Part shown: in pieces, positions 30,946 through 50,587 of the stretch
How positions within the stretch are numbered: the stretch's first letter is position 1
Layout: every line of letters begins with the position of its first letter
DNA from: a phage
Sequence record: OZ346187.1
Length of the DNA: 64,000 bases
Strand: one strand, 5' to 3'
Position numbers and translations under genes: made by a program
The notes under the pieces: generated by a model
Databases searched by the model: none
What the model saw: the letters and a program-made list of their open reading frames with translations, nothing else
Told to the model about the DNA's origin: nothing

Positions 30946-30962
30946 TAAGATGTGAGTATAAA

Positions 30963-30980: not shown

Positions 30981-31006
30981 ACAAAAACTAAGGAGAGCAC
31001 CAAACG

Positions 31007-32332: not shown

Positions 32333-32345
32333 AGAGTACAATCAA

Positions 32346-33046: not shown

Positions 33047-33058
33047 GGAGAGAGTGTT

Positions 33059-33541: not shown

Positions 33542-33547
33542 CACTAG

Positions 33548-33573
33548 GCCCTGCCCGAAAGGGTGGGGCTTTT
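33548..33573 (+). terminator. rho-independent terminator, GAAA-tetraloop hairpin
   Basis: ccctgccc-gaaa-gggtgggg then cttttt; the same 22-nt core recurs at 44926-44947. Confidence 0.6.
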
Positions 33574-33592
33574 TGCATTAGGAGACAGCAAA

Positions 33593-34357
33593 TTGAAATT
33601 CATCTACAAAGAACACTACCACAAAGGTGTTGTGTGGAGTCTATTTGACGGGTCTGGTGGTGCAGTTATTGACTGGGCAAAAGCTGGGTACCTGTGCCTG
33701 TGCTTTAATGCAGAAGGTGCTGACCACGGCAGTTATGCAGAGGTGATAACCGATCATCCTAACATTCACTATGTGGATTATTGGATTGACCCATGGTTCC
33801 CTCAGGAAACTTTTTGCATGTATCCAGCTCCAGACTTTATTCTTGCATTTCCTCCGTGCACGCATTTAGCGGTATCAGGTGCTGCACATTTTAAGAAAAA
33901 GCTGGCTAAGGATCCTTTGATCCAAATTAATGCTGTAAAGGATGCTCGGGTTGCGGAAGAGTTGGGAGAGATTTACGATTGCCCGTGGCATGTAGAGAAT
34001 CCTGTAGGGGTTATGTCCACACTGTGGCGAAAACCTGATTACCGTTTTCATCCTTCGGATTATGGTGGGTATTTACCGGAGGATGATGTAAACCCCTGGT
34101 TTCCTGAATTTATAGCTCCACGTGATGCCTACCCAAAAATAACTTGCGGCTGGATAGGCAATGGATTTATAATCCCGGCCACAAAACCTGTCCCGCAAAT
34201 AGTTGACGCGGTTAGCGGGTATTCCATGCAACACGCCAAGCTGGGTGGAAAGAGTGCAAGAACGAAGATGATCCGAAGCCTCACGCCACGTGGCTGGGCA
34301 AAAGCCGTATTCTTAGCAAACGAGCCTGTAGTAAGGAGCAGAATTAATGGGAAGTAA
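33593..34357 (+). CDS. DNA cytosine-5 methyltransferase-like protein (254 aa)
   Basis: Probable TTG start at 33593 after AGGAGA; motif I-like LFDGSGG, catalytic Pro-Cys in AFPPCTHLAVSG, motif VI-like HVENPVG; short, target-recognition region unclear. Confidence 0.45.
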   Translation: MKFIYKEHYHKGVVWSLFDGSGGAVIDWAKAGYLCLCFNAEGADHGSYAEVITDHPNIHYVDYWIDPWFPQETFCMYPAPDFILAFPPCTHLAVSGAAHFKKKLAKDPLIQINAVKDARVAEELGEIYDCPWHVENPVGVMSTLWRKPDYRFHPSDYGGYLPEDDVNPWFPEFIAPRDAYPKITCGWIGNGFIIPATKPVPQIVDAVSGYSMQHAKLGGKSARTKMIRSLTPRGWAKAVFLANEPVVRSRINGK

Positions 34358-36425
34358 ATTTATGGCATCTGCATACAACCGTTTCGGTGAGCCAAACCCG
34401 AAAGCAATTAAGTATAAAAGTGGGGGAAGTGTGAAACGAGACTATCGTGATGAAAAAGAGGTTGAAACTGTAGAGACTGTTTTAGAAAATACTAAAATCG
34501 TCCCTGTCCCACAACAAAATATCGGTCTGATGGCTGCACAATATTTTGGTGTGCGATCAGCATTGTCCCAAGAAGACGGTGTGACAGTCACTGCAACATA
34601 TTTCCCATATTACGACCGATACGGAAATCTGTCCGGTTTCAAAAAGCGTGACTGGACTATTCCTAAAGAACAAAGGGGCCACTTCTCCGTTGTTGGCATA
34701 GTAAAGGCCAACTCCCAGATGTTTGGTCAAAAGCTGTGTGCATCTTCCAACAACCGTAAGCAGATTAACGTTTGTGAGGGAGAAGGTGATGTTATTGCAG
34801 CATGGCAGGCTGCATATCAGATACAAGTAAAAGGGATTCTCACCAACGCTAAAGCCCCGGCAAAGGTGAAGCAGTGGGCTAAAGAGGTCCAGGACGGGAT
34901 CGACGCAGTTATCAACGGTGGTGATCTGGCAGGAAAACCCTGCCTGCCTTTTGTTGGAATTAACTGTGGATGTGCAAACGCAGTAGATACTTTTGCAAAC
35001 AATGAGAAGTTTATCCGTAGCTATGGAACAGTTGTGCTGGCAATGGATAACGATGCAGCTAACGAGGTAGAGAAGCAAAAACACGTCATTAAAGGTGTTG
35101 AGGCCACGCACAATATCGCAGCATTTTTGATGGCTGATAACGTTTACCACGTAGAATACCCTGGTGAAGTAAATGACCCTGACGGGGTAAAAGATATCCG
35201 TGACATGCTGAAGGCTAAAAAGCTGGAAGATATTGTCAACATGTTCCGGCACCCTGTTAAATATGTGCCTGATGCTGTGTCGGATTTAGAAGACTTCTCT
35301 ATCGAGTCTTTGCGGAAAAAGACTTCCAACGGGGTAGATATCAGCGCAGAGTTCCCAAAACTGCAAAAAATGCTAAAAGGCTTGCACAAAGGGACACTCG
35401 TAATGCTTACAGGGCCATCAGGGGGCGGTAAAACAACTGTAGCTAAAAAACTGGAACATTGTATTGCAAGATACCTAATGGACCCGACATGCCCGAAGGC
35501 TGATGACTATGAAGAGGATGATCGTCTATGTATGATCCATCTTGAGGAGGACCCAGAGGAAGCAATTAACTCCTTGTATGCAAACCAGTTAGGGTTTGAT
35601 GTTAAAGAGTTTGTTGAAGATCCTAGCCAGTTTTTAACTGATCAAGAACACGCAGAGATTCACCAATCATGGGCAAAAGCTGGAAAAATCAAAGTGTTCA
35701 AACATTTCGGATCTATTCCGGTGGACGAGTTGATTACCAAGCTTAAGCAAATGGTTTGCCTGTACCATTGCCGTTATATTGTGCTGGATCACCTATCCAT
35801 GGTAATTTCAGGGCTTAATGTTAAGGATGAGCGAAAAGAACTGGACATGGCTATGACTCAGCTGGCTGCGTTTTGTAAGCAGTTTAACGTGTTTATCTTG
35901 GTGATCGCTCACCTCAAACGTACAGAGATTGTGCCTCCTAAGGACAAGGATGGTAACCCGTTACCTTTCTGGTATCCTGTGCGAAAAGAGAATTTGCGAG
36001 GATCGGCGGGGCTTGAACAGTTGAGTTGGGTAGTCATAGGTGTCGAGGCCGAAGAAATGGTGGATCGTTCTCGTGGACGTGTCCGTCTGGTAGGTCTTAA
36101 AAACCGTCCAGCAAAAACTCTAGGTATTGCTGACACTTTGGTTATGGACCCGCACACAGGTAAGTTCCATGATGCCAGTAATTGGTACTGGGACAAAGAA
36201 ATGCAAATGTTTACAGACGGAGAAGGTGGGGAGGTTGTTTGGAGACCTCAGGCTATGTTTGAGGATCAGGAGCATGCAGTTGTAGAAACACCTATGGGCA
36301 AGGTTGTGGCTGATAAGGTTGTAACTCCTACTGTTAAGCCTGTTGACACGCAGGAAGACCTCCAGTACGATGATCCATCCTCTGACCCGGTCCCTGGTTT
36401 TGAGGATGATGAAACGCCTTTTTAA
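34347..36425 (+). CDS. DNA primase-helicase (Toprim + P-loop helicase) (692 aa)
   Basis: Toprim-like CEGEGD and VLAMDNDAANE; Walker A LTGPSGGGKTT, Walker B IVLDHLS; acidic C-terminus ...FEDDETPF. Confidence 0.75.
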   Translation: MGSKFMASAYNRFGEPNPKAIKYKSGGSVKRDYRDEKEVETVETVLENTKIVPVPQQNIGLMAAQYFGVRSALSQEDGVTVTATYFPYYDRYGNLSGFKKRDWTIPKEQRGHFSVVGIVKANSQMFGQKLCASSNNRKQINVCEGEGDVIAAWQAAYQIQVKGILTNAKAPAKVKQWAKEVQDGIDAVINGGDLAGKPCLPFVGINCGCANAVDTFANNEKFIRSYGTVVLAMDNDAANEVEKQKHVIKGVEATHNIAAFLMADNVYHVEYPGEVNDPDGVKDIRDMLKAKKLEDIVNMFRHPVKYVPDAVSDLEDFSIESLRKKTSNGVDISAEFPKLQKMLKGLHKGTLVMLTGPSGGGKTTVAKKLEHCIARYLMDPTCPKADDYEEDDRLCMIHLEEDPEEAINSLYANQLGFDVKEFVEDPSQFLTDQEHAEIHQSWAKAGKIKVFKHFGSIPVDELITKLKQMVCLYHCRYIVLDHLSMVISGLNVKDERKELDMAMTQLAAFCKQFNVFILVIAHLKRTEIVPPKDKDGNPLPFWYPVRKENLRGSAGLEQLSWVVIGVEAEEMVDRSRGRVRLVGLKNRPAKTLGIADTLVMDPHTGKFHDASNWYWDKEMQMFTDGEGGEVVWRPQAMFEDQEHAVVETPMGKVVADKVVTPTVKPVDTQEDLQYDDPSSDPVPGFEDDETPF

Positions 36426-36487: not shown

Positions 36488-39400
36488 ATGAGTATGTGGA
36501 ATTTTGACTTTGAGGCCTCAGGTCTTCTGGACGAGGAAGATCTTTACTACCATTGTGGCCTGTTTAAAGAGTTGAATAAAAATAATTTTATGTTGTTTTT
36601 GCCTATCAATGATAGATCTCATTACAGTGAAGAGGAGGTTGAAAAAGCAAAACAATTTATGCTGGCAAAGCAAGATATCTATCCTAGCTGCTCTGTCCGT
36701 ATTGCGGATTTCAGCCAGCTTGAATGGTGGTTAACCGGGAACTCCGATTGGTCACCCACATCATTAAGTTGTCACAACTGTTTTAGTTATGACTTTATCT
36801 TGATGGAGAAGCTGTCTGGTATTCATTTTGATATGTTCCGTGATCCCAAGTGTATGGGGACAATCAATAATCATCAGGTGAACCTGTTCGACACTCTGCC
36901 AATGAGTCGTATACTATGGCCCGACAGACCGTTACCTAAAGGATGCCCTGATTCTGTATACAATCCTGTTACAAAACGTATGCAGCAGGTAGGTCCTCAT
37001 GGCCTAATGGCGTGGGGGTACGCTTTAGGAAACCAGAAGGTTAAAATTGATGACTGGAGAAATTTACCTCTGTGGAAGTATGTTGATCGTGTATTCGAGG
37101 ACGTTATCATCCAGGAGCTGCTCTGGAAAGAGCTGGTAGCGGAATCAAAAGGTGTATTCTACGGCAAATCTGACATGCAGAACTTTATGTACGATCCAGC
37201 CAAAGAGAAGCCGAAAGGGTTCAAGAAGATTACCTGGAAGAATGCATTACGCCGAGGCATGCTGCAGCACTTCCTGATGGAGCTGCAGGCCCGTCAGGGT
37301 GTATACTTCGACATAGATGGAGCTATTGCTTTACGTGACCGTTGCGATGCGTGGATGAAAGAAATCGCTGATCGTGTTGAACCACAACTACCTTTAAAAG
37401 AGCTGTCAATGTCTCAGCGGCCCAAGTTCCCTGAAAAGCCGTTTAACCAAGACGGGACAATCTCTAATAATGGTTGGAAATGGTTAAAAGATAAGCTTGG
37501 CTATCCTGTAGACATGAGTGCTTTAGAGTTCAAAGCCCCGCCTAAGCGAGCATTTACCTCTACAGGAGATGTCAGCAAGATGGGGATAAAATGGTGTGAA
37601 GAGATGGGCTGCAAAGACCCCGATAAGATGGCTGATTTCTTGAGAGGCTATATTAAGGGCACCTCCACACCACAACCCTTACCTAAAGAGCTGATGGATC
37701 AGGCAATAAGTGATCTGCAGCAGAAGCGAATGCCTGACTGCAAGATACCTATGAAAATCAGCAATCAGGACGACATCAAGCGATACCTAATCAGTGCTGG
37801 TTGGCTCCCAACAATGTGGAGAACTAAAGATGTAACTAAAGACAGCAAGAAGAAAGCTTTACCTGATGCAGATGTTGATGCACGAGTATATGCATATATG
37901 GACGAGCTTTTGGAGTCAGAGTATTGTGACCTAATTATCAACTTCTGGAACAAAACTGATGCTAAGTTCCAGACAACCGTGCACAAGTTCCGAAGCTTTC
38001 CTAACTCCGAAAGGATTAAAAAGGAAGTATTCGGGAAAATACGTAGAAAAGCCAGGGCACTTATTACTTCTCCGCAACTGAAAGATACGTTTGGACACCT
38101 ATGCCCAAATCTTGAAAAATTGAACGGAGAGATGGCTAAAGATATCGTCTTGTGGTTATCATTGCGAAACCGCAGATCGGTCCTTGATCCAATCAAGGAG
38201 GATAAGGTTGATACTGGTCTTCTTAATCACCCACGTTTGAAGATTGACCATAAGCTTCCTGCTAAAAGCTCTGGATTAACAAACACTTCCAGACAGAAAC
38301 ACAGTATTTGTGCAAACATGCCTAAACCATCTCCTAAAGTGGTTATGGGTAAAGAGATGCGTAGTCTGTGGGGTGTTCCTCCGGGATACTTTGAGATCGG
38401 TATTGACGGGTCCAACTTAGAGCAGCTTATCGGGGCTTGGGGTGCCTTTGAGTTCGACAACGGCCTGTATTATGATGTTGTAAGTAATGGCGATGCACAC
38501 TGTTATTCAGGAGATACACAAATTCTCACGGAGAAAGGGTGGGTGAGGTTTGAAGATCTTGATCCGGGAACACAAGTGTTCCAGTACGATCACAACACCT
38601 CGTCAATGAACCTTGTTACTCCATTAAATTACGTTAAGCGTAGTTATTGTGGGGATATGTATCATTTCCACAACAGTAGTGTGGATTTTATGGTTACAGA
38701 TCAACACAGGATGCTGACTGTGGATCACAGAAGCAATAAATTGTTTGAAGATTTGGCAAAAGACCTGAAAGCAGGTAAAGGGTCTAATTCAGGAAGAAGG
38801 TTTATCCATGCGGCAGAGTTTTATGGGAATACAACCTTATCTCCTGCCCAGGTTAATTTGCTTATTGCTATTCACGATGATGGGCACTTGCATACAAATA
38901 AGGACGGCAGCATCGTGTGCAGGATTCAGGTCGGAAAGGGAAGAAAAGTTGCAACGCTTTTAGATACTTTTTCTGCTCTAAGCCTTAGTTATGTAGAGCA
39001 GAGCGGGAAAACCACAAAAGGGGGCTTACTGGCGAGAAGGTTCCAATTCCACGTTCCGTCCTGGGTATTTGAGTTTTTGGACAACAATAAGGATTTCACC
39101 TATAACCTGATGAACCTTGATAAAGAATCTAAAAACCTGTTTATAGCTTCTTTATCTAACTGGGACGGGTGGGTATCTTCCGAAGGTGGAAAGGTTGCTT
39201 ACTACTCCCAGGCCGAGTGCAGGAAGAAATCTGTAGAGGTGGTGTCTGCGCTGGCTACTCAGTGTGGTTTACGGAATAATACGGTGGCGATTCACAAAAA
39301 AGGTCGTGCCGTGCAGCACAGAATCACAATTGGTAGCAAACAGAGAGCAGGGTTGCTGACACTATCTAAAGAGTCTGTCGAGGTGAGCGGTTCTTTGGTT

Positions 39401-39886
39401 TATTGCGTTACCGTCCCTTCTGGAGCAATCATTGTGAGAAGGAATGGTAAAGTGGCAGTGTGCGGTAACTGTAATAACGCCAAAGCTTACTCTTCTGTAG
39501 CAGGCAAGGAGATTTCCCGTAACGATGGTAAACCTATCACGTATGGGGTTATGTATGGGGCACAAAAAGATAAAGTTGCAGATATGCTGGACATCTCCCC
39601 AGAGTTGGGACAAAGGGTAATCGATGCACTCTGGGATGCCAACCCAGGTCTTAAGGGGCGCAAAGAGGATCTGGAGAAATTCTGGGAAGCAACAGGTAAG
39701 AAGTTTATCTACTCTTTTGATGGTCATGCTATCTGGACCCGATCTAAACACTCTTTACTTAATGCATACCAACAAAATGGCGGTGCATCGTTGTGTGACT
39801 TAGTTGGAATACTCATGCACCACCAGATGGTGAAGCGTGGGTGGTACGATGAAGGTGTTCGTCGTATTATTTATTACCATAAATAA
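36488..39886 (+). CDS. family A (Pol I/T7-like) DNA polymerase with 3'-5' exonuclease domain, interrupted by an intein (1132 aa)
   Basis: Exo I-like NFDFEASGL at the N-terminus; motif A-like IDGSNLEQL followed by GDAH; motif B-like RNDGKPITYGVMYG after the insertion. Confidence 0.85.
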   Translation: MSMWNFDFEASGLLDEEDLYYHCGLFKELNKNNFMLFLPINDRSHYSEEEVEKAKQFMLAKQDIYPSCSVRIADFSQLEWWLTGNSDWSPTSLSCHNCFSYDFILMEKLSGIHFDMFRDPKCMGTINNHQVNLFDTLPMSRILWPDRPLPKGCPDSVYNPVTKRMQQVGPHGLMAWGYALGNQKVKIDDWRNLPLWKYVDRVFEDVIIQELLWKELVAESKGVFYGKSDMQNFMYDPAKEKPKGFKKITWKNALRRGMLQHFLMELQARQGVYFDIDGAIALRDRCDAWMKEIADRVEPQLPLKELSMSQRPKFPEKPFNQDGTISNNGWKWLKDKLGYPVDMSALEFKAPPKRAFTSTGDVSKMGIKWCEEMGCKDPDKMADFLRGYIKGTSTPQPLPKELMDQAISDLQQKRMPDCKIPMKISNQDDIKRYLISAGWLPTMWRTKDVTKDSKKKALPDADVDARVYAYMDELLESEYCDLIINFWNKTDAKFQTTVHKFRSFPNSERIKKEVFGKIRRKARALITSPQLKDTFGHLCPNLEKLNGEMAKDIVLWLSLRNRRSVLDPIKEDKVDTGLLNHPRLKIDHKLPAKSSGLTNTSRQKHSICANMPKPSPKVVMGKEMRSLWGVPPGYFEIGIDGSNLEQLIGAWGAFEFDNGLYYDVVSNGDAHCYSGDTQILTEKGWVRFEDLDPGTQVFQYDHNTSSMNLVTPLNYVKRSYCGDMYHFHNSSVDFMVTDQHRMLTVDHRSNKLFEDLAKDLKAGKGSNSGRRFIHAAEFYGNTTLSPAQVNLLIAIHDDGHLHTNKDGSIVCRIQVGKGRKVATLLDTFSALSLSYVEQSGKTTKGGLLARRFQFHVPSWVFEFLDNNKDFTYNLMNLDKESKNLFIASLSNWDGWVSSEGGKVAYYSQAECRKKSVEVVSALATQCGLRNNTVAIHKKGRAVQHRITIGSKQRAGLLTLSKESVEVSGSLVYCVTVPSGAIIVRRNGKVAVCGNCNNAKAYSSVAGKEISRNDGKPITYGVMYGAQKDKVADMLDISPELGQRVIDALWDANPGLKGRKEDLEKFWEATGKKFIYSFDGHAIWTRSKHSLLNAYQQNGGASLCDLVGILMHHQMVKRGWYDEGVRRIIYYHK
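38501..39469 (+). mobile_element. intein with LAGLIDADG-like homing endonuclease domain inserted in the DNA polymerase (323 aa)
   Basis: In-frame insertion between GDAH and motif B; starts CYSGDTQILTEKG (Hint block A), ends ...VYCVTVPSGAIIVRRNGKVAVCGN then Cys +1; internal LLIAIHDDGH and FIASLSNWDGW resemble LAGLIDADG motifs. Confidence 0.65.
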
Positions 39887-40153
39887 CATTGTGGCTTCAT
39901 AGAGTAATCTATGTCGAATAACCTCTTTAACTGCGGGAAGCCTAAACCTTATGGCAAGGTAATCCGCAACGAAGCGCTCAAAAGAGCGAACGCTCAGAGG
40001 CCATTCCGAAAGGAAGTAGACCAGCAAGTGCGGTCGAAATGGGAGGATTCCTGTGGTTGCTTATCATAGGAATATGAGATGGTCCGATCCTACGTGAAAA
40101 CGTATGGCTATGCACGTAATGGTGCGGGGTAGCTTAACGACCTACCTGAACTA

Positions 40154-40510
40154 TTGGATGAGTACCAACTTCAAGTGCCTGACACACCGAAGTATAAGAC
40201 TGTGTACACCTTCGACACAATTGAAGAACTGGAAGCATTTAAGGCAGAGCAGGAAGCCAAACTTCATGTGTTCGACGGTCATAAGTACAAAAAGGCACGC
40301 AAGGATGAGGACGGAAACGAAGTGGTTGACAGAGACGGAAACACGGTGTACGATCCTATCCTGAACGATGACGGAAAGCTTGAACTTATCTGGAGCCCTG
40401 TGGGTGAAATGGTGGTACATTGCTTCTGGCAAGCTTCTAAAATGATGGGAGTCCCGTTCCAGATCACAGGTGAATACTTGTGTGGTCGTAATTGGGGTGA
40501 TTGTCACTAA
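40154..40510 (+). CDS. hypothetical protein (118 aa)
   Basis: ORF with TTG start in track; start uncertain. Confidence 0.35.
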   Translation: MDEYQLQVPDTPKYKTVYTFDTIEELEAFKAEQEAKLHVFDGHKYKKARKDEDGNEVVDRDGNTVYDPILNDDGKLELIWSPVGEMVVHCFWQASKMMGVPFQITGEYLCGRNWGDCH

Positions 40511-40559
40511 TGTAAACTATCAACACATGGAAGTGTTGTTGAGCAAAGAGGAGACTTTT

Positions 40560-40844
40560 ATGGTAGTAGAACCAACAAAAACATTTACATCCATGACTAT
40601 CCCTGTTATTATGCAGGTGGAGTGTGTTCAGGTATCTCAAGTGTGGCCTGGCACCAAAATCCCAACAGGGCCTGATTTCTTTCAGGTTGGGAAAGTGTAC
40701 AATGTCTGGAAGGCACCAGATTGTTACCCTTTCATTAAAGATGACCGTGGGATGCTGTGGTATCTTGGAAATGACTTGACACTGCACCTTGGGAATGCTA
40801 TTATTGCAGTATTCAGACTTAACAAGAAGGAGACCGATCAATGA
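40560..40844 (+). CDS. small early protein, triplicated family member 1 (94 aa)
   Basis: ATG at 40560 after AGAGGAG; shares G-K-x-Y...KDD-x-G-x-x-W-Y pattern with the next two ORFs. Confidence 0.45.
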   Translation: MVVEPTKTFTSMTIPVIMQVECVQVSQVWPGTKIPTGPDFFQVGKVYNVWKAPDCYPFIKDDRGMLWYLGNDLTLHLGNAIIAVFRLNKKETDQ

Positions 40845-41068
40845 CGACTTTGGTTAAAGCCACCTTTGTAGAAGAAAAGATGACAGACATGTCATTCTTT
40901 AAAGAAGGAAAGACCTACGAGGTTTATTCCGATAAAGCTCGTGCAAACAAAATGATTAAAGACGAGGAAGGGGTTGACTGGTATATCTCTCACCTGGCAA
41001 ACGGTGAGTATCATATCTACGGAACCACTTTGCTTGCCAAGTTTGTAGTTGTTGAAGAGGACCTATGA
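40841..41068 (+). CDS. small early protein, triplicated family member 2 (75 aa)
   Basis: AAGGAGA RBS; family pattern GKTYEVYSD...KDEEGVDWYISH. Confidence 0.45.
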   Translation: MTTLVKATFVEEKMTDMSFFKEGKTYEVYSDKARANKMIKDEEGVDWYISHLANGEYHIYGTTLLAKFVVVEEDL

Positions 41069-41259
41069 AAGTAAAGTATCTTGCTGAAGGTATGAATAGG
41101 TATTTTACCCTTGGTGAAGAATATTGGCCCTTTACAAACAACGGCGATGTCTACGTGAAAGATAATTTCGGCACGCCGTGGTTTCTGCACTCTAATGGGC
41201 TGGGATACTCCATTTACTGCGGTGCAGTGAACAACACAACTCTTGCAGAGTTCGTTTAG
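41065..41259 (+). CDS. small early protein, triplicated family member 3 (64 aa)
   Basis: ATG overlapping upstream stop; GEEYWPF...KDNFGTPWFLHS. Confidence 0.45.
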   Translation: MKVKYLAEGMNRYFTLGEEYWPFTNNGDVYVKDNFGTPWFLHSNGLGYSIYCGAVNNTTLAEFV

Positions 41260-41269
41260 AGGAGGTAGG

Positions 41270-41641
41270 ATGTTAGTAAAAGGTACCCACACAGTCAAAC
41301 AACGTATTGAAGTTGAGATTGATGATTGTGAGCTGAAGCATATTTTACGGTCATGCTCCAACGTTTTGCTCCTTAGTATTCTTCAGGAGCGAGCGGAGAA
41401 CGAGTTCTTAAATGCATTGGCAGGCCGTCCCGGTGACTTCTGTGTGCGTAAGCGTGGTGACAACAAGTCGTGGTTGTGGGAGATCGATGCCGACTGGGAT
41501 TACCACAAAAATGAGGGTATAGATGAGCCTATTCGTGAACTGACGGACAAAGAGATTCAGATGTACAATGAAGTTTGTCATTGGGCAACACGCCAACAAA
41601 TTTACCTAGACCCTGTGTGGCTGATTGAAAATAGTCGTTGA
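41270..41641 (+). CDS. hypothetical protein (123 aa)
   Basis: ATG at 41270 after GAGGAGG (track start 41243). Confidence 0.45.
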   Translation: MLVKGTHTVKQRIEVEIDDCELKHILRSCSNVLLLSILQERAENEFLNALAGRPGDFCVRKRGDNKSWLWEIDADWDYHKNEGIDEPIRELTDKEIQMYNEVCHWATRQQIYLDPVWLIENSR

Positions 41642-41666
41642 CAAGAAGTAAGGTTAGATGTAAGAT
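41638..41666 (+). promoter_or_regulatory. sigma70-like promoter (TTGACA-17-TAAGAT)
   Basis: -35 overlaps the upstream TGA stop; upstream of 41718. Confidence 0.4.
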
Positions 41667-41717
41667 ACTCCTCACAAACAGAGTATTGATTGTTAAATAA
41701 TTAAGGAGACCTCTAAG

Positions 41718-41945
41718 ATGAAAATCATGTTGAAACCAGAATGCGTTGCAAACGACCGAGCTTTTAAAGATTGCACACTTGGCGCTACTTATGAAGCAGA
41801 GTTTTGTGAGAACCCTTTGGTAAAAGCCCTTTTGGAAGAAGTACTTTATCACAAGAAGAGCTTGATGAGCTGGAAAACTCAGCACAGTGCCTTACCTTTA
41901 AAGATGATGAAGGAGACTCTGTCTGGTGCACTGTTAACGAAGTAG
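41718..41945 (+). CDS. small early protein, KP...AF(K/R)DCT family, copy 1 (75 aa)
   Basis: AAGGAGA RBS; MLKPECVANDRAFKDCTLGATYEA parallels ORF 42032-42292. Confidence 0.45.
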   Translation: MKIMLKPECVANDRAFKDCTLGATYEAEFCENPLVKALLEEVLYHKKSLMSWKTQHSALPLKMMKETLSGALLTK

Positions 41946-41971
41946 TTTTTGTAAAAACTGAACATTAATAC

Positions 41972-42000
41972 TTGACAACAGCGATAGGACCTAATACAAT
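41972..42000 (+). promoter_or_regulatory. sigma70 consensus-like promoter (TTGACA-17-TACAAT) with palindrome over the -10
   Basis: -35 41972-41977, -10 41995-42000; inverted repeat ataggacc/ggtcctat (41984-42008) brackets the -10. Confidence 0.5.
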
Positions 42001-42031
42001 GGTCCTATCAAAACGAAAGGGGACCACAGCA

Positions 42032-42292
42032 ATGACCAAACAATATCAACGAATTAAAGCCAAGGTTAAGCCAGACTATCTAGAGAAGGACTCTGCTTTT
42101 CGGGACTGCACAGCTGACAAAGTTTACACAGGGGCCGTCCTGTTGAACGATAAACTTGAAGTAGATGTGCTGGGTAAAGAGGCCGTTATCGAGGATGACA
42201 ACGGTGACTGTGTTTTCTGCACCACACGAGAGCTAGAAGTCTTAGAATATTTCGGTGAAATCTTCAACTCCTTAGACGACGAGGAAGCGTGA
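42032..42292 (+). CDS. small early protein, KP...AF(K/R)DCT family, copy 2 (86 aa)
   Basis: ATG at 42032 after AAAGGGGA (track TTG 41972 lies inside the promoter); KVKPDYLEKDSAFRDCTADKVYTG. Confidence 0.45.
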   Translation: MTKQYQRIKAKVKPDYLEKDSAFRDCTADKVYTGAVLLNDKLEVDVLGKEAVIEDDNGDCVFCTTRELEVLEYFGEIFNSLDDEEA

Positions 42293-42681
42293 TGAAAAAT
42301 ATTTGGGATATCGATATCTTTGAAGCCTCTAAGCTTGACGGTGCTGATGGAGTGATTATGGTGTCTGATGGCAAGGCAACACTAACTTCCGGAGATATCA
42401 TCTATGCCTTGGACGAGCTGGCGCTTCTGAAATCTACCGGTAACACTTTGGAGGAGCGTCTTCAAGGATTCGCTTTCAAAGAAGGTACAAATACAGCCAT
42501 GATGTGCACCACACGGACAGTTCAGGTTGGTAACGGTGTCTATATGATTATTGCTGTGTGTCCTAAATTCAGCAACGTCAACAAAGATGATGCTGACGCG
42601 GTCAACGATGTGGTTGTTCTCTTCGTGGGTGACGCTATGGCAGATCTGATGAATGCAGGAGAAGCAGCAAATGAAGACTGA
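42292..42681 (+). CDS. hypothetical protein (129 aa)
   Basis: ATG at 42292 (track GTG 42289). Confidence 0.45.
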   Translation: MKNIWDIDIFEASKLDGADGVIMVSDGKATLTSGDIIYALDELALLKSTGNTLEERLQGFAFKEGTNTAMMCTTRTVQVGNGVYMIIAVCPKFSNVNKDDADAVNDVVVLFVGDAMADLMNAGEAANED

Positions 42682-42973
42682 AAACATCACCCCAGCAGGG
42701 TTCTTAAAAGTATACCGTGAACTGCTATATACTACAGAGGACAGTGTTCTAGAGTATCCAGAATATCTTTTGCTGTATAAGTATCTGCAGGAGGCTGGTG
42801 AAAATCTGCCAGTTAGTGCAGAAGGTGGTCCAAACTGGATATACAGCGCATGGAGAAAGGTTGACATTCTCCCAGACCCAGGTAAAGATATGGTAGTTTG
42901 GCAGCTTATCAACAACATCGGGATTCCAATCTTTGATGAAGCTGTTAAAATCTATTTTGAACTTGACGATTAA
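42674..42973 (+). CDS. hypothetical protein (99 aa)
   Basis: ATG at 42674 (track start 42653). Confidence 0.4.
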   Translation, partial: KTENITPAGFLKVYRELLYTTEDSVLEYPEYLLLYKYLQEAGENLPVSAEGGPNWIYSAWRKVDILPDPGKDMVVWQLINNIGIPIFDEAVKIYFELDD

Positions 42974-42990
42974 TATCAGGAGACCTTAAG

Positions 42991-43236
42991 ATGACTGAAG
43001 CAGTTGCTCGCGCAGGACAGAAAGTACGTTGTGTTGAAGTAGGTTTTGGTGGCAAAGGGTGTCAAAACTTGACTCAAGGCAAGGAATATGCTGTTATCTC
43101 TGGTGGTGGCGACGAAAGTATTGTGTTCGAGGGCCACATCCTGGATGCTGAAAACTTTGAAATCTTTGACGACGATGGGGATCCGATCACCTGCCTGCTG
43201 GACGGGAATTGGGGAACTTTCGAAGTGATTGGCTAA
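42991..43236 (+). CDS. small acidic protein (81 aa)
   Basis: AGGAGA RBS. Confidence 0.45.
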   Translation: MTEAVARAGQKVRCVEVGFGGKGCQNLTQGKEYAVISGGGDESIVFEGHILDAENFEIFDDDGDPITCLLDGNWGTFEVIG

Positions 43237-43246
43237 CAAATACCTA

Positions 43247-43275
43247 TTGTAATTTACAGAAGGGGATGCTAAAAT
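43247..43275 (+). promoter_or_regulatory. sigma70-like promoter (TTGTAA-17-TAAAAT)
   Basis: Hexamers with 17-nt spacer upstream of 43320. Confidence 0.35.
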
Positions 43276-43319
43276 AGTGTCTCCTTCTATGTTGTTCAAA
43301 TAAAATCGGAGATTCCATA

Positions 43320-43688
43320 ATGGAACAAATGAACGATCAAGAGTCGGTTGCGATGAACGAGCAAGAACAACCTCAAGAATTTTTCTTAGGGTTAAGTAAA
43401 GATCAAGTGTCTCTTTTGCTAGTGCTTTCTTCTTTCATGGGAAGACTTCAGGAGCTCACACAACAACCGGAGGCTGAACAATTATTTCAGGCTCTGCGTG
43501 AAGAAGAAAAATATCGTCGTTTGGACTATGCCTTAGGTTGGGTAGCTCAACAACGAGATATGCTGATGGCCCTCTCTGGGACCACAAGTTTTGCAATGGG
43601 CCTGTTGGCTCAAGTTCAGGACAAATTAATTCAAGCAGGGTTTGCACACACGGCAAACACTAACGAAGAACAAGGAGACAAAGAATGA
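43320..43688 (+). CDS. hypothetical protein (122 aa)
   Basis: ORF with RBS, Gln/Glu-rich. Confidence 0.45.
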   Translation: MEQMNDQESVAMNEQEQPQEFFLGLSKDQVSLLLVLSSFMGRLQELTQQPEAEQLFQALREEEKYRRLDYALGWVAQQRDMLMALSGTTSFAMGLLAQVQDKLIQAGFAHTANTNEEQGDKE

Positions 43689-44911
43689 GCGTTATTCAAC
43701 AATTCGCTAACCCGATGAATCCGCGTGAAACTGTTTTACTGGCTCACGGCATGATTAAACGCGTCAGCATCAAGCCTATCAAAGGTGCTGATCCTACAAC
43801 AGGTATTAAAACCACTGTGTGGCAAGGTAAGAAAATTGAATCCAGCCACACCATCTCTTTACTGATTTCTGAACTGGATTCCTCTGATAACCTACTTCAA
43901 GGTGGTGAAGAAGTTTGGATCAGTATGGGCGATAAGCTGCTTAAACCGGGTCATCAAGACTCTGTCTCTGTTAAAATTGATGACAAGTGGGAAACCGTAA
44001 CGCCAGGATGGATCGTAAATATCCCTTTGAAGGCAAACGAGCATAACGGTAAGACCTACTACAAAGGCTCACTGGCTAAGATGGTTAAGCTGGGTGCAGG
44101 AGAGGCTCCAGCAGCGACTCAGCAGCAAAAACAGCAACAAGGTGCACAATCACAAGGCCAGAAGCAGAAACCTCAGCAGAATGCCAATCAGGACGTTTTA
44201 CGCATCTATGGTGATGTGACTCAGATTGTTGGCAACGTGGTTACTGTAAATGACCACAAGATTGGCGAAGGTGCTATGGTTGTAACTGATGAGCAGCTTA
44301 AAGACCTGGTGGTAGGTGGTCGTGTTGCAGCCATTGTTGACAAAGACACTGGAAACATTATCAGTGGTTTCAAGGCCTATCCTCCTAAGGCAGAGAACGG
44401 CACTCAAGGCTCCGGTGGCAAGCGTAAATCCTCTTACGACCCTATCGGTGTGGAAACGGGGCATAGCATCAATGCGTTGCAGATCATCCTGGATCGCGGG
44501 TTTAAGGTAGACGACCCACTGGGCGTGGCTAAAACACTGCACGTAGTCACCATTGAGCTTAAGAAAGAGTATGCTCAAGCCACCAACCGAACTGAAGATG
44601 AAGTAGGTGCCAGTGTCGGTAATGCGGTGTTGAACGCTTGTCGCCGTATTGACAAGAAAACGAAAGTTGATGATTTTGCAGCGGCAATTACTGCAGAAGC
44701 AAAAGATGTCTTGACTAATCTGGCTGAGCCGTTGTACGATTGGATCAAGAACGGTGCTGGGTCAACTGACCATCAAGAACCTCAGGCTGCCAAACAGGAA
44801 GCAGCTCCACAGCAAAACACTGTAGACGCTCCTCCTGTAAATGATGGGGAAGATGACCCGATGGATCAGAATCCAGCACAGTACGCCTTTGATGATGACA
44901 TCCCTTTTTAA
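43685..44911 (+). CDS. ssDNA-binding-protein-like protein with SSB-type C-terminal tip (408 aa)
   Basis: Ends in DDDIPF, identical to the bacterial SSB C-terminal tip, after a Gln/Ala-rich linker; N-terminal fold not assigned. Confidence 0.5.
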   Translation: MSVIQQFANPMNPRETVLLAHGMIKRVSIKPIKGADPTTGIKTTVWQGKKIESSHTISLLISELDSSDNLLQGGEEVWISMGDKLLKPGHQDSVSVKIDDKWETVTPGWIVNIPLKANEHNGKTYYKGSLAKMVKLGAGEAPAATQQQKQQQGAQSQGQKQKPQQNANQDVLRIYGDVTQIVGNVVTVNDHKIGEGAMVVTDEQLKDLVVGGRVAAIVDKDTGNIISGFKAYPPKAENGTQGSGGKRKSSYDPIGVETGHSINALQIILDRGFKVDDPLGVAKTLHVVTIELKKEYAQATNRTEDEVGASVGNAVLNACRRIDKKTKVDDFAAAITAEAKDVLTNLAEPLYDWIKNGAGSTDHQEPQAAKQEAAPQQNTVDAPPVNDGEDDPMDQNPAQYAFDDDIPF

Positions 44912-44927
44912 CAATTAGTTAACATAG

Positions 44928-44955
44928 CCCTGCCCGAAAGGGTGGGGCATTTTTG
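44928..44955 (+). terminator. rho-independent terminator, GAAA-tetraloop hairpin (second copy)
   Basis: ccctgccc-gaaa-gggtgggg then cattttt; same core as 33548. Confidence 0.6.
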
Positions 44956-44973
44956 TATAAGGAGATCTGAAAA

Positions 44974-45390
44974 ATGACATTAGAAGATATCATTGTTAAA
45001 CCTGAGAACTATGACCAATACAACCTGTCAACTCAATCTGTAGACCTTGGATGCGCCACAGTTAGTGCGTGGCTGGTTAATGGAAAAGAGCTGGACAAGT
45101 GCTTAGAAGCTCACATGTCTGTTAACAAGTTTCTGGATGAAAATACTCACTGGCTTGAGGGTGCTGGAGTATATGCTTCATGGTTGGAGAGCATGGGCTT
45201 TGACTATCAATCTGATGAAGGGTGGTGGAGCTATCTGGCTATCTGTCCAGAAACACTGCAATGCTTCATGAAATACTCTGAAGATCTTGAGTACCGAGCG
45301 GTGGTTGATAGTGCTATTGCCCGTTATAGCCGTAAACCTTTTTCCCATGACATTAAAACTGTGGAAGAATTTGTTGAAGTTTTCTGTTGA
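44974..45390 (+). CDS. hypothetical protein (138 aa)
   Basis: AAGGAGA RBS. Confidence 0.45.
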   Translation: MTLEDIIVKPENYDQYNLSTQSVDLGCATVSAWLVNGKELDKCLEAHMSVNKFLDENTHWLEGAGVYASWLESMGFDYQSDEGWWSYLAICPETLQCFMKYSEDLEYRAVVDSAIARYSRKPFSHDIKTVEEFVEVFC

Positions 45391-45486
45391 CACAGGTTGA
45401 AAGGTGTGCAATTATAACTTCATAAAACGGGAGGACGCGATGAACGAAGAAAACTGGGATGTATAACTAACAGGAGACCACTGCCC

Positions 45487-45684
45487 ATGATTTATCGAAT
45501 CCGTGTAAGAGAAGATGCACCAGGCTGTTACTTTGACTGGCGTGGGTGGTGGTTTCTCCACCCAATGGATGGACTCACAGATAGAATGCTGGATGCTGCC
45601 CTTTATACAGATACCGACATAGAATATAATCTCTATCTGAAGGACGGTATAGATAACGGTCTATTTGAAGCAATTCCTGTGTAA
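45487..45684 (+). CDS. hypothetical protein (65 aa)
   Basis: AGGAGA RBS. Confidence 0.4.
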   Translation: MIYRIRVREDAPGCYFDWRGWWFLHPMDGLTDRMLDAALYTDTDIEYNLYLKDGIDNGLFEAIPV

Positions 45685-45752
45685 GAGACTGTGATAGCCA
45701 TGTTTTATGATCTTCCTGTAGCACCACCACCTGTTGAACCTGGAGAACTAAG

Positions 45753-46172
45753 ATGATCTATGAAATGCCAAAACTGATTCGTGACGATGCCCAAAACCAC
45801 ACCATTATTATGGGTAAACGCATGAATATCCTTTGCCGTAACGATTTCTGTGGTGTAGAATACGTTGCAGACTACTTCGGTGAGAATGGTAAACACCCTG
45901 TTCAGTTCTTCCTTGACCATGAGGATAACATTATCTGGGAGTTTGAAACTGAAGATATCCGCAACCTCTTCATCTTCCTCGGTGTCAAGGTTAAGGCCAA
46001 TTTCGCGGAAGGTGAGTGCGACGATTGTGGATTTTATGAGGTGACAGACTTCTATCTCCCGAGTGGCAAGAACATTTACTATGAGAGTCACTTCGGAAAC
46101 ACCAACATGCCTCAAAGCTGGGAAGAATTTTTCAGTATCGTAGAAGAGGAGCTGGCATACCGTGATTATTGA
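45753..46172 (+). CDS. hypothetical Cys-containing protein (139 aa)
   Basis: ORF with RBS. Confidence 0.45.
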   Translation: MIYEMPKLIRDDAQNHTIIMGKRMNILCRNDFCGVEYVADYFGENGKHPVQFFLDHEDNIIWEFETEDIRNLFIFLGVKVKANFAEGECDDCGFYEVTDFYLPSGKNIYYESHFGNTNMPQSWEEFFSIVEEELAYRDY

Positions 46173-46620
46173 TACTGTAAAGGGAGATTTAATCTCCCTT
46201 TTTAAGAGCGGTGCTGGTCACCTAATCCACGGTTGTAACTGCTTCCACACAATGGGTAAGGGCATAGCAAAACAGATTGCCCGTGAGTTTCCTCAAGCAT
46301 TGTCAGCCGACAAAGAGACCAGACACGGTTGCCTAAGTAAACTGGGTGCGTTCTCCCGATGGGAGCACTTATCTCCGAGAGGTATTGTCTACGGAATCAA
46401 TCTGTATACTCAGTTCTACCCAGGGCCTAATGCTGAATATTTCTCAATCCTGAAAGGCTTTGAGCTAGTCAATGAGGTATTCGAGGGATCGACTTTACCA
46501 TTCTACATCCCTAAGATCGGATGCGGCATAGGCGGTTTGAAGTGGGAGCACGTAGAGGACGTTATTAACCTCGCCACTTTTGATATAGATATTATCGTGG
46601 TGGAGTACAAAGAGTGTTGA
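46162..46620 (+). CDS. macrodomain protein of the DarG/TARG1 type (152 aa)
   Basis: N-terminal GDL...AGHLIHGCNCFHTMGKGIAKQIAREFP matches the GNLL...NTVN..GVMGKGIA...FP signature of TARG1/DarG-type ADP-ribose-processing macrodomains; GTG start. Confidence 0.55.
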   Translation: MIIDTVKGDLISLFKSGAGHLIHGCNCFHTMGKGIAKQIAREFPQALSADKETRHGCLSKLGAFSRWEHLSPRGIVYGINLYTQFYPGPNAEYFSILKGFELVNEVFEGSTLPFYIPKIGCGIGGLKWEHVEDVINLATFDIDIIVVEYKEC

Positions 46621-46645
46621 CAGCTGACTTTTGAGATGGTATAGT
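46617..46645 (+). promoter_or_regulatory. sigma70-like promoter (TTGACA-17-TATAGT)
   Basis: -35 overlaps upstream TGA stop; upstream of 46677. Confidence 0.45.
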
Positions 46646-46676
46646 CACCACAACGATTGAGAGAGGGAGCACCACT

Positions 46677-46877
46677 ATGGAGACTAAAATCTTAATTCTG
46701 GCTGTGATAGATACGACCGAAGGGGCCGTGTTCGAATCTGCAGGAGGGTATTTCTACCTGCCCTACGGAAAAATAACTTCCGAACCGAGTAAAGATTCAA
46801 TCCTTAAAGTGTTCCCTTGTGCTTTCTGGCTGGAGATTCTGGTAGAAGATTGCAGAGGATTGGGGAGAGAATTATGA
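46677..46877 (+). CDS. hypothetical protein (66 aa)
   Basis: GAGAGGGAG RBS. Confidence 0.4.
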   Translation: METKILILAVIDTTEGAVFESAGGYFYLPYGKITSEPSKDSILKVFPCAFWLEILVEDCRGLGREL

Positions 46878-47068
46878 GAAACAAGAAAGAGCTTTACTCT
46901 GGCGAGTGGATCAACGATCAACAGGTCGGAGAGGTAACCTGCTTCCGGTGTTTTACTCGGTACAATCTTAAAACTGCACCAAAAAGTGTTCCAAAGACTG
47001 ACGGTTATTACATAAAAGAACCTCATTGCCCAAAATGTAAATGCCGATTGTACTGGAGCAATCTATAA
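46874..47068 (+). CDS. small zinc-ribbon-like protein (64 aa)
   Basis: ATG at 46874; CFRC and CPKCKC Cys pairs. Confidence 0.4.
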   Translation: MRNKKELYSGEWINDQQVGEVTCFRCFTRYNLKTAPKSVPKTDGYYIKEPHCPKCKCRLYWSNL

Positions 47069-47072
47069 GAGG

Positions 47073-47100
47073 TTGACATCTGAAAACTGCAGTGTATAGT
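47073..47100 (+). promoter_or_regulatory. sigma70-like promoter (TTGACA-16-TATAGT)
   Basis: Hexamers upstream of 47132. Confidence 0.4.
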
Positions 47101-47131
47101 ATACACATAAACTAACAGAGAGCGATGTATT

Positions 47132-47323
47132 ATGGTAATTTTTAACCGGGATGGTATCATAGTTAGACAGCACCCGTTCCTTGAATACTATCAAATTGAG
47201 CAATGGTGCTACGGGGATTGCAGTCACTCCTATGGGCAAAGTTGGGGATATCGTACAGTTTTTGAATCAACAGACCTTGACAAAGTAAGACAGAAAGTTT
47301 TAGAACTTATTAACAACAAGTGA
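47132..47323 (+). CDS. hypothetical protein (63 aa)
   Basis: ORF downstream of promoter. Confidence 0.4.
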   Translation: MVIFNRDGIIVRQHPFLEYYQIEQWCYGDCSHSYGQSWGYRTVFESTDLDKVRQKVLELINNK

Positions 47324-47332
47324 GTATGATAT

Positions 47333-47665
47333 ATGGTAACATTAGAAAGACGTAAAGCTATCGCCGCCACACTGGCAGACATCTTTTGGGATTGCAACTT
47401 AAAAGATACCAGAAATTGTGGCGCATCTGTAGATGTATTATTCCCACGGCCCACCATTGTTGCAATGGGAAACCTGTTAAACGTAGTGTACGGAGCATGG
47501 GACAAAGAAGGTGGATTCTATATCTGGCAACCTGACTACAGAGCCTGGAAAGAGGTAAGGGGTGCGGTTGACTTTGGGCCTGCAAGTGCTAAGATGGATG
47601 GCTGGGAAATTTATGTTGGAAACGACATGAAGCTGAAAGGCGAGATTGTTTACTGGTTACCTTAA
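47333..47665 (+). CDS. hypothetical protein (110 aa)
   Basis: ORF with RBS. Confidence 0.45.
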   Translation: MVTLERRKAIAATLADIFWDCNLKDTRNCGASVDVLFPRPTIVAMGNLLNVVYGAWDKEGGFYIWQPDYRAWKEVRGAVDFGPASAKMDGWEIYVGNDMKLKGEIVYWLP

Positions 47666-47685
47666 GAGAATGCAGGAGATAAAGT

Positions 47686-47931
47686 ATGAACAAAGGGTGG
47701 ACATTTGTAGACGGCGTTGAAAACATGCCTCTAGGAAAGTATATTGTAGCCATGGCAGATGAGAATGGCAAGGTTGATTTCGGAGCTTGCGAGGTTGTTC
47801 TTGCAGGATCTGGTGACTATGCTCACAAAACTGGGATAATTAACGGTCATTTCTACTTTGATTACAACCCTGTTGTGGCGTATATGGCTATGCCAGAGTT
47901 CGAGCTCCCAAAGGAGGGTGCGGATGTTTAA
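47686..47931 (+). CDS. hypothetical protein (81 aa)
   Basis: AGGAGA RBS. Confidence 0.45.
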   Translation: MNKGWTFVDGVENMPLGKYIVAMADENGKVDFGACEVVLAGSGDYAHKTGIINGHFYFDYNPVVAYMAMPEFELPKEGADV

Positions 47932-48121
47932 GCTTAAATCTGCATGGAACATCGCTGTGGGGGACGAGATCCGCATCCCAGGTGGAAAGACCATTATGAA
48001 GATATCTCGTATCGAGTACGAAGGTGATCGTGTATTTCATATCTTTGCAGAAGATGGTCGAGAAATTTATATACAGGCAGGCTCTCACATCTATATTCGT
48101 AAGAAAGGGGACGACAAATGA
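47924..48121 (+). CDS. hypothetical protein (65 aa)
   Basis: ATG at 47924 after GGAGGG (track start 47858). Confidence 0.4.
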   Translation: MFKLKSAWNIAVGDEIRIPGGKTIMKISRIEYEGDRVFHIFAEDGREIYIQAGSHIYIRKKGDDK

Positions 48122-48447
48122 CAGAGATCATCATTTCAACTGCAGGGTATGTGTTCCTGACAATCATTGCACTGACCATTTTGGTGGTGGTATATGGAAT
48201 TGTTATTCTCCCTATTCTTGAGACAATTAGTTTGTGTCGGTGTTGGAGAAAGGCTTACGGTCCACAGCCGTGGAAGGACTGGCCCCACCTGGTGCACATA
48301 GCGTTCTCTTATGCTTATGATCACGCCAGCAGTGCATGCATAACCGGGTATCACGCCCACAACTGGAGCTGGGAAGGGTTGAGGAAATGGAATGTTACAA
48401 AGACCATACCTCTGCGCATGTACAAACCTAAAAACAAAGACAGCTGA
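48118..48447 (+). CDS. membrane protein (109 aa)
   Basis: N-terminal long hydrophobic segment IIISTAGYVFLTIIALTILVVVYGIVILPIL; last gene of the plus block. Confidence 0.45.
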   Translation: MTEIIISTAGYVFLTIIALTILVVVYGIVILPILETISLCRCWRKAYGPQPWKDWPHLVHIAFSYAYDHASSACITGYHAHNWSWEGLRKWNVTKTIPLRMYKPKNKDS

Positions 48448-48476
48448 TACTTGAAAATCCCTGGCATATCAAGTGT

Positions 48477-48512
48477 AAGGAGGATTTCTAAAATGGATTT
48501 CCTCCTTTTGAT
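48477..48512 (+). terminator. terminator-like hairpin at end of plus block
   Basis: aaggagga ... tcctcctt stem with about 15-nt loop followed by ttgatattt. Confidence 0.35.
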
Positions 48513-48747
48513 ATTTCACCGGGCCAGATATTTTAAAATTCTTAGAAAATCAGGTCTTTGAAATGAAAAACAGATCGAGTACCGAAAGAGGATGTACAAA
48601 TTTTCTGATAATAATGGACTTATTGTTATAAAAGGTCAGAGGTAAGCTGGGAAAGTTCTGGTAGAAGGGTGAGAGTATGTGCGGAAAAATCTGGAATAGT
48701 GACTTAAAGTACGGTGCGAACGATAAGGAATTGAGCAGCACATCTTA

Positions 48748-49150
48748 TCGTGCCTGTATTTTGTGTGGATGAATGAGAATACCTATCATTGTGAGAACCA
48801 TTATCATTACGGGCAATTTAACAGTACCGATTATGCGCACCACTGGCGATACATACAGGGATTGATAACATGGGTTACTGTTTACGCACATAACAATTGT
48901 ATTTCTTACTATTTGTGTGGGCGTTTAGACGTTGACGGTCAGAAGTCTGCAGGTTAATATCTAATCTATTGGCTGCTAACTATATCCCACACAAATAGTA
49001 AGAAATACAATTGTTATGTGCGTAAACAGTAACCCATGTTATCAATCCCTGTATGCATGCCAGTGGTGCGCATAATGGGTATTATGTTAAATTGCCCGTA
49101 ATGATAATGGTTCTCACAATGATAGGTATTCTCATTCATCCACACAAAAT
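48748..49150. repeat. large imperfect inverted repeat (arms about 170 bp, spacer about 64 bp)
   Basis: 48748-48921 is the near-exact reverse complement of 48986-49150 (identical for the outer 66 nt and the inner about 66 nt; one indel-containing patch); track ORFs 48763-48957(+) and 49014-49205(-) are mirror images of it. Confidence 0.85.
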
Positions 49151-49379
49151 AGATTGCAAATGTTGTGCCACTGTGTGAACGGCCTGGCCTATTAATTTGC
49201 CTCACTGCCTTGATATTTGAGAATTATTATAAGAATGAGAAGTATTCCCATTTCGTCCGCCTGGCAGCACTCCTGTAGGTCCTGCAAGGACTCTAGCTGA
49301 AAGCTAGACCCTTCGGGCCTCCCTGCAGGTCAGGTCAAAATCGTGGTAGAATTGGGCCTGTTCAGATATTTCTGGCTGA

Positions 49380-50587
49380 CTCTTCAGGTCTGTGTGGGAA
49401 AAGCCAACCTCTCCGGCGGGGCATGGGGTCATGACGGGAAAATTGCAGGTCAATTAAAAAATTTACGTGGTGTATGAAGCGCTCTTCAGGTAAGGCAGGT
49501 ATTATGGGATGAAACCCTCTTCAGGCAATGATATTTGTGGGTGTGATATTTGCTGGAAAGCCAGATATGACGGGACTCCCGGCGGGGCAGGGGTAGTACA
49601 GACAGGGAAAATATGGAGGATGTGGTTGGGTAAATTGATCAGGCAGGTAGAGTATGGAATATGTTACAGGTATGTTAAATAGGGAGGCTGAATATCTGTA
49701 GGATTTGTGTGTAAAATCAAAGACTTAAGTGGTGTTGTGGTATTTTCTATAAATAATTCAAGTTTAATAGGTAATATTTGTCTCTATTCGCTTTGTGTGG
49801 TAAACAGATTCAGATGAGATTGGTTTACAAGTGTATACATAATATACAAATTAAAGATACAAGAAACCCCCCTCCCCCTTCGGCTACCATTCACCTTTTC
49901 CTCTGACTGGTACTTAAACACTTATTCAGACTCTTCAGGTTATCACCCATATATCATATGGCAGTGACTGGTGTCCTCCGGCCCCTCTTTCGTCACCCGT
50001 CCGCTTCGCCATGCTAATGCCATAGCCAATGGTTCGGTTGTTCACCCTGTTCACTCAGGTGTATCTCCATACCCCTTCAAACCGAAGAGAACAGAAAACC
50101 CGAATTACTCGGTAAAAGAAAAGAGAAGAACTTAATTTTATCAGGATAGGCAAGAATGTCAAGGCATGACTGCTCACTAAACAAGCAAACAGTCATGTGT
50201 GGAAGGTAAGTGATTGTGGTGGTAGGAAATTTAGTTGAAAGATGTGTTATAGGTGCTTCCAGCACTTTAGCCGGGCAGCTAATTGTGTGTCAGTCCAGCG
50301 GTTCATCCTCTACTTCACTGAAATCAATGTTCATGGTCTCTTCCCAACCATCGATCTCAGCACAAGAGTGGAGTTCTTTAGGGTTTACTCCCAAAGCCTC
50401 AGCAACAGAGTCTATATTTAACACCTCTGGCAGGTATGATTCATCGAATTCAAGGTAAATCAGGCCACGAGTGTTGTCAGCTCCACCAAATATCTCTATC
50501 TTCATGAAATCTCCTCTGGAAATGAGAGTGTGAACAGGGTTTTATACGTTCTAATGCACAGGAATTATACACGTTTGCCTCTTCAGG
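49380..50587. repeat. iteron-like direct repeats in non-coding DNA
   Basis: CTCTTCAGG at 49380, 49482, 49517, 49931, 50579; about 35-nt repeat ctcc(c)ggcggggca(t/g)ggg...gggaaaat at 49411 and 49577; AT-rich stretch 49741-49860; C-tract 49867-49878. Confidence 0.5.
50290..50505 (-). CDS. small acidic protein (71 aa)
   Basis: ORF, first of minus-strand small-gene array. Confidence 0.4.
   Translation of the reverse strand: MKIEIFGGADNTRGLIYLEFDESYLPEVLNIDSVAEALGVNPKELHSCAEIDGWEETMNIDFSEVEDEPLD

Follow-up and report, generated by a model that had tools for sequence, protein, structure and literature searches.

An inverted duplication within the direct terminal repeat of a Vequintavirus genome, probably a private rearrangement scar

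The DNA analyzed here, a stretch of 64 kb referred to below as the window, reads as a Vequintavirus (rV5-like) coliphage, and approximately 120 sequenced relatives match it at 90-98%. Two gene blocks converge on a non-coding zone of 1.8 kb (48448-50289); in relatives, the gene-poor zone at the convergence point measures approximately 2.5 kb. The left flank has its closest relative in phage MaxTheCat (98.8%), and a protein identical to the product of the last gene of the left block (Table 1) occurs on numerous public contigs, each of which runs on into the normal small-gene block. This last plus-strand gene is followed, upstream of the repeat described below, by a hairpin that is conserved in ECP2309; direct reading suggests that it is terminator-like, and a consensus scan did not flag it. 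No tRNA genes were detected in the window and no tandem repeats between 48.4 and 50.4 kb.

Elsewhere in the window, a 441-aa open reading frame on the plus strand (31007-32332) gives a strong match to the DNA methylase domain N6_N4_Mtase (E = 5.9e-42). The corresponding 1.3-kb segment, 31010-32344, has no counterpart at the same position in MaxTheCat, and the open reading frame thus represents an inserted DNA methyltransferase gene. The DNA polymerase gene (36488-39886, plus strand, 1132 aa) carries an extra in-frame segment of approximately 1 kb (38500-39497), which is likewise absent from MaxTheCat, begins with the intein-like 'CYSGDTQILT' and yields a weak, sub-threshold match to the Hint domain at aa 672-706; it is possibly an intein. 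Annotations in relatives give the polymerase either as a join of two parts or as containing a homing endonuclease. Among the INPHARED records, 18 'Campylobacter phage' entries of the MG0656xx series (75-143 kb, unannotated) are 92-95% identical to the coliphage region and appear to be rV5-like coliphages deposited under the name of a different host.

The non-coding zone contains an inverted repeat, the reality of which in the sequence is confirmed. The repeat finder resolves it into three collinear inverted blocks, 48757-48823/49085-49151 (67 nt, 100%), 48825-48847/49059-49081 (23 nt, 96%) and 48849-48921/48986-49058 (73 nt, 99%), which together form the two arms. Local BLAST aligns the arms over 167 columns at 96.4% identity, with two small divergent patches. 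The G+C content of the repeat is 37.5%, and no other inverted repeat in the window has arms reaching 60 nt, the remaining pairs being 32 nt long and 72-75% identical. As single-stranded DNA, region 48740-49170 folds at -193.9 kcal/mol, compared with -44 ± 4.2 kcal/mol for 100 shuffled versions (z = -35.7). The original prediction, which placed a large inverted repeat where the two transcription blocks converge and proposed a calculation of its folding energy, is thus upheld in these respects: the repeat finder, the local BLAST and the folding score mark the repeat as genuine and exceptional, and it lies between the last plus-strand and the first minus-strand gene. The predicted coordinates agree with ours to within approximately 9 nt, with the left end misplaced (48748 rather than 48757), and the single divergent patch that had been described for each arm proved to be an undercount, since the comparison of the arms reveals two. 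The octamer CCACACAA or its complement occurs at both ends of each arm (48761, 48913, 48987 and 49140) and also at 49793 and 62078; a longer motif, CCACACAAAWTAG, is repeated only locally, at the arm ends, and shows no significant enrichment over chance across the window.

Table 1. Features at the convergence of the two gene blocks (positions in the window; DTR, direct terminal repeat).
Feature	Position	Strand	Size	Remarks
Last gene of the left block	48118-48447	+	109 aa	Homologue of MaxTheCat bas57_0096
Terminator-like hairpin	48477-48518	+		AAGGAGGA...TCCTCCTT followed by a T-rich tail; read from the sequence
Segment x'	48535-48756		~220 bp	Inverted with respect to relatives; directly abuts the left flank
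Junction J1	~48553/48554			No base-exact overlap; adjoins an imperfect inverted homology of ~19 nt containing AGAAAAT
Junction J2 (x'/left arm)	48756/48757		1 nt	Overlap
Left arm	48757-48921		165 nt
Junction J3	48914-48921		8 bp	Microhomology TGTGTGGG, present both where the left arm ends and in the ancestral sequence before the spacer
Retained DTR-homologous part	48914-49261		348 of 459 bp	Gotham positions 351-1, 95.7% identity
Spacer (loop)	48922-48985		64 nt	Ancestral terminal-repeat sequence, colinear with relatives
Right arm	48986-49151		166 nt
First gene of the right block	50290-50505	-	71 aa

Vequintaviruses have direct terminal repeats (DTRs) of 458-459 bp and a fixed packaging start (PMC6563267; PMC7471380). 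In Gotham (MT682716), the repeat is annotated at positions 1-459 and 136567-137025, and in this numbering, the right arm corresponds to terminal-repeat positions 277-111, with the left arm being an inverted copy of positions 111-277. Given that 48914-49261 maps to positions 351-1, the right arm and the spacer are ordinary terminal-repeat sequence. The boundary at the outer edge of this part, ...CGTCCGCC/TGGCAGC at 49261/49262, is precisely where the sequences of 4 records, namely, Gotham, EdH4, HdK5 and ECP2309, start. The inner boundary (GTCA/GACAAGTTTTTC..., GACAAG...) is absent from the entire window, and the inner 108 bp of the DTR are missing from it together with the neighboring iterated region of the GTGTAAAC type; each of these three parts is kept in all 120 relatives compared and in 20 of the 20 fetched loci. 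In Gotham, the region just inside the inner boundary (460-620) is an iterated GTGTAAAC/ATGTAAAC-like cluster, conserved in relatives and deleted here, which represents a possible recognition array for packaging or replication. Directly outside the retained boundary, 49262-49600 contains short imperfect direct repeats: two copies each of ATGAAGCGCTCTTCAGGTAA (35 nt apart), TGCAGGTCA... (120 nt) and CCGGCGGGGCAKGGG (166 nt).

The repeat is private to this genome. A second, inverted copy of the arm was found in none of the approximately 120 sequenced Vequintaviruses, and all 20 fetched terminal-region loci are single-copy, this being the outcome of the comparison with related phages that the original prediction had called for. 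The inverted repeat was not found in APECc02, Alma and navn, and the evolved, shorter rV5_ev146 has no comparable repeat. None of 50,697 phage genomes covers at least 80% of a 501-bp query spanning the repeat, and searches of Escherichia coli complete genomes and plasmids returned either nothing or one ordinary single-copy relative. The right arm is single-copy ancestral sequence with an orthologue in every relative, and the left arm has none; the inverted duplication that had been suspected is therefore real, with the left arm as the extra inverted copy. The exact J2 and J3 junctions had no match in IMG/VR, metagenome contigs and genome contigs, collections that, according to positive controls, contain few Vequintaviruses, with only 1-2 terminal regions from the genus, so that these negative results are weak.

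The duplication accompanies a large deletion; that the left arm marks its junction, and that the repeat lies within the DTR, had both escaped the original prediction. Colinearity with MaxTheCat extends from 40001 to 48553 (locus 14498-23051) and resumes from 48914 onward (locus 35859 onward), leaving out MaxTheCat locus 23052-35858, that is, 12.8 kb comprising bas57_0097 to 0131, approximately 35 small genes, and the left part of the non-coding zone. The distance between the equivalents of 48553 and 48914 is 11.9-12.8 kb in the 7 relatives for which both coordinates are listed. The 12.8-kb block was not found elsewhere in the 64-kb window; it may have been relocated outside it.

The place of the lost block is occupied by a filler of 360 bp (48554-48913), which consists of segment x' followed by the left arm. 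Relative to ECP2309, the window thus runs through locus 17692 to 13138, then 12884 to 13103 (x', inverted), 111 to 277 (inverted) and, finally, 351 to 1. In ECP2309 and in 10 of the 10 contigs with the identical upstream gene, the corresponding segment x is found in the opposite orientation, 35-254 bp past the left breakpoint, and strand data from further records agree with the orientation in ECP2309. In relatives (e.g., ECP2309 12884-13103), segment x is non-coding and lies within a gap of 0.3-1 kb that follows the final replication-block gene. By eye, a promoter-like TTGACC...CATTAT can be read on its gene-sense strand; in the inverted x', this sequence would point back into the left block. 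At the other end of the filler, the J3 octamer TGTGTGGG has its reverse complement, CCCACACA, at the beginning of the right arm, the two being 64 nt apart here and approximately 66 nt apart in ECP2309 and Gotham.

Both arms carry the same genome-specific combination of variants, indicating that one arm was copied from the other. They differ at two private patches. In the left arm, GGGTATTATG is changed to CGGTAC--TG (in the sense of the right arm), and in the right arm, GTATCGCC is changed to GCAT-GCC; at each site, the opposite arm retains the ancestral state. Neither patch occurs in any of the 120 relatives, and the possibility that the patches are circulating natural variants was accordingly rejected. 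The presence of one small private patch per arm suggests that replication of the structure has been going on for a while since its formation.

Collectively, these results favor the view that the repeat is a private structural scar, left by a deletion and a fold-back or template-switch inverted duplication, rather than a conserved device, a reading to which we assign a probability of roughly 0.6. The observed deletion, two inverted templated pieces, junction sequences and absence from relatives would be accommodated by the following order of events, which, like the enzymology, we infer. The ancestor would have had the normal Vequintavirus layout, with the left block, approximately 12.8 kb of small genes, the non-coding zone containing the 459-bp DTR, and the right block, and would have lost both the 12.8-kb block and the terminal repeat's inner 108 bp. 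A minus-strand 3' end at terminal-repeat position ~351 (...CCCACACA) could have folded onto TGTGTGGG, located 64 nt upstream on the same strand, and primed synthesis, copying 165 nt of the terminal repeat backwards into what would become the left arm and leaving the 64-nt spacer. The nascent strand would next have switched, almost bluntly, at J2 to the far side of the deletion, where approximately 220 nt would have been copied in the inverted sense, before a final switch at the short imperfect inverted homology of J1 into the left flank. Either template switching during replication or break-induced fold-back priming may have been responsible.

The fold-back model reproduces the left arm, the length of the spacer and the J3 microhomology exactly. 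Both inverted templated insertions are drawn from within approximately 250 bp, at most, of a deletion end, and the left arm sits between two breakpoints. Furthermore, the overlaps at the junctions, 1-8 bp, are far shorter than the k-mers used by assemblers, which implies that the junctions must exist in the sequenced molecules. Several other origins of the arrangement were considered and rejected. Head-to-head ligation of virion ends would place the center of symmetry at an end of the repeat, position 1 or 459, whereas the observed center, ~48953, corresponds to repeat position ~315. Simple inversion of the whole block would put x' beside the right flank, not the left one. Finally, derivation of the left arm from a different, co-infecting phage is incompatible with the genome's own variant combination being shared by both arms. 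The product can, on its predicted folding, form a very stable hairpin or cruciform; use of that potential is not indicated.

Some observations weigh against the scar reading. The inner DTR boundary and the iterated region have been lost although 120 of 120 relatives retain both, and this loss casts doubt on whether the sequence as written corresponds to a viable, normally packaged phage; moreover, no independent assembly carries the junctions, in collections with few Vequintaviruses. In a different explanation, the junctions stem from in-vitro chimeras (inverted chimeras of MDA or PCR, or fold-back long reads) or from a defective deletion subpopulation followed by the assembler, and the dominant viable phage has the normal layout. 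Amplification chimeras typically take the form of inverted joins at short microhomology, just as observed here, and the structure is unique when set against approximately 120 relatives and 20 loci. It also removes a DTR boundary that is conserved in every relative and that a phage with fixed packaging ends should need (PMC7471380). Nevertheless, a consensus assembly usually takes the majority path, three linked junctions together with a clean loss of 12.8 kb exceed what a single chimeric read would produce, and mis-joins in a k-mer graph cannot create overlaps as short as the 1-8 bp at these junctions. In addition, identical arms would be expected from a fresh in-vitro fold-back, whereas here two private patches distinguish the arms, each patch facing the ancestral state in the other arm. 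The patches could be sequencing errors in a hairpin that is hard to sequence, rather than real divergence. On balance, we consider an artefact or a defective molecule somewhat unlikely.

If the phage is viable, the inverted partial copy might instead have been retained after the loss of the boundary because it helps to form or regenerate the genome ends, for instance as a hairpin that primes duplication or re-synthesis of the terminal repeat, as has been proposed for concatemer processing in T7, or as an additional terminase recognition site of opposite orientation. The duplicated piece originates inside the terminal repeat and is located exactly at the lost boundary, and 459 bp measured from the retained boundary would end within the left arm, at 48803. 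That the arms appear to have diverged also suggests propagation of the genome. However, such a role is pure inference and no relative uses a structure of this kind, whereas the fold-back microhomology accounts for the arm as a by-product of rearrangement without selection, which makes a part in end formation quite improbable. We regard as very improbable, in turn, that the repeat is a conserved regulatory or replicative element, even though it sits where two transcription blocks converge and has an extreme folding energy: it is conserved in no relative (approximately 120 sequenced, 20 loci), and a separate terminator-like hairpin precedes it. The specific functions put forward in the original prediction fare no better. 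A cruciform origin and a precursor of a hairpin RNA would both be expected to be conserved across the genus, in which the sequence is single-copy throughout the approximately 120 Vequintaviruses and the 20 loci. A bidirectional terminator or insulator is not supported, given its absence from relatives and a scan that found no intrinsic-terminator signature in the repeat. An Rfam scan of 44-54 kb returned a single chance-level match (22 bits against a gathering score of 120). The idea of a fold-back mobile element, or fold-back transposon, is ruled out by arms that are copies of the local terminal repeat with the genome's own variants and by the lack of any other copy in the window or in public collections; no target-site duplication was found, the flanks GCCTGT and GATTGC being unduplicated. 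As for the duplication of a small gene, searches of Pfam and PHROG gave no match for the open reading frame in the arms, 'MNENTYHCENHYHYGQFN', the start codon of which lacks conservation; several relatives have an in-frame stop upstream, and most records leave the frame unannotated. It is present in both arms only because the DNA is duplicated, and it is not a gene.

Should the phage carrying this presumed scar prove viable, the approximately 35 small genes, bas57_0097 to 0131 in MaxTheCat and among them a 'putative holin', would be dispensable, as would the iterated region and, in the DTR, both the inner boundary and the inner 108 bp. Dispensability of these terminal parts would constrain models of how the Vequintavirus terminal repeat is cut and duplicated, and the genome would provide a clean example of fold-back or template-switch rearrangement in a lytic phage, with 3 of the 3 junctions readable. 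If the repeat did take part in end formation, it would amount to a natural experiment on the making of fixed terminal repeats in rV5-like phages. If, on the other hand, it is an artefact or belongs to a defective genome, the record should be flagged. Either way, annotation of the repeat as an origin, a terminator or a gene would be wrong.

With the DTRs of Gotham, EdH4 and HdK5, the locus shares the homologous sequence at 48914-49261 and a boundary at 49261/49262 coincident with the record starts, but here the inner 108 bp and the second boundary have been replaced by the inverted copy of positions 111-277. In T7, a hairpin intermediate has been proposed for the processing of concatemer junctions and the duplication of the terminal repeat, and there, too, an inverted repeat lies beside or within a short direct terminal repeat in a genome with fixed ends. 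The T7 element, however, is wild-type, whereas ours is missing from every relative and thus cannot be the normal end-forming mechanism of the genus. The hairpin nuclease SbcCD acts on long palindromes that have been cloned in phage lambda or E. coli, and arms of approximately 165 bp would similarly be able to form a hairpin or cruciform in an E. coli host; by contrast with such palindromes, the present repeat has a 64-nt spacer and 2 mismatch patches, which are expected to make it better tolerated. Fold-back inversion and FoSTeS/MMBIR, that is, serial template switching at microhomology, have been described for bacteria, yeast and human genomes. The likeness to this class is manifold: an ancestral arm and its inverted copy lie at a breakpoint, the spacer is unduplicated, an 8-bp inverted microhomology existed beforehand, and short inverted templated insertions stem from near the deletion ends, with one junction almost blunt. 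The difference lies in the setting, a lytic phage and the interior of its DTR, and in a mechanism deduced from sequence alone. On this comparison, the repeat would be a further case of a familiar type of rearrangement, unusual in its location within the direct terminal repeat of a phage.
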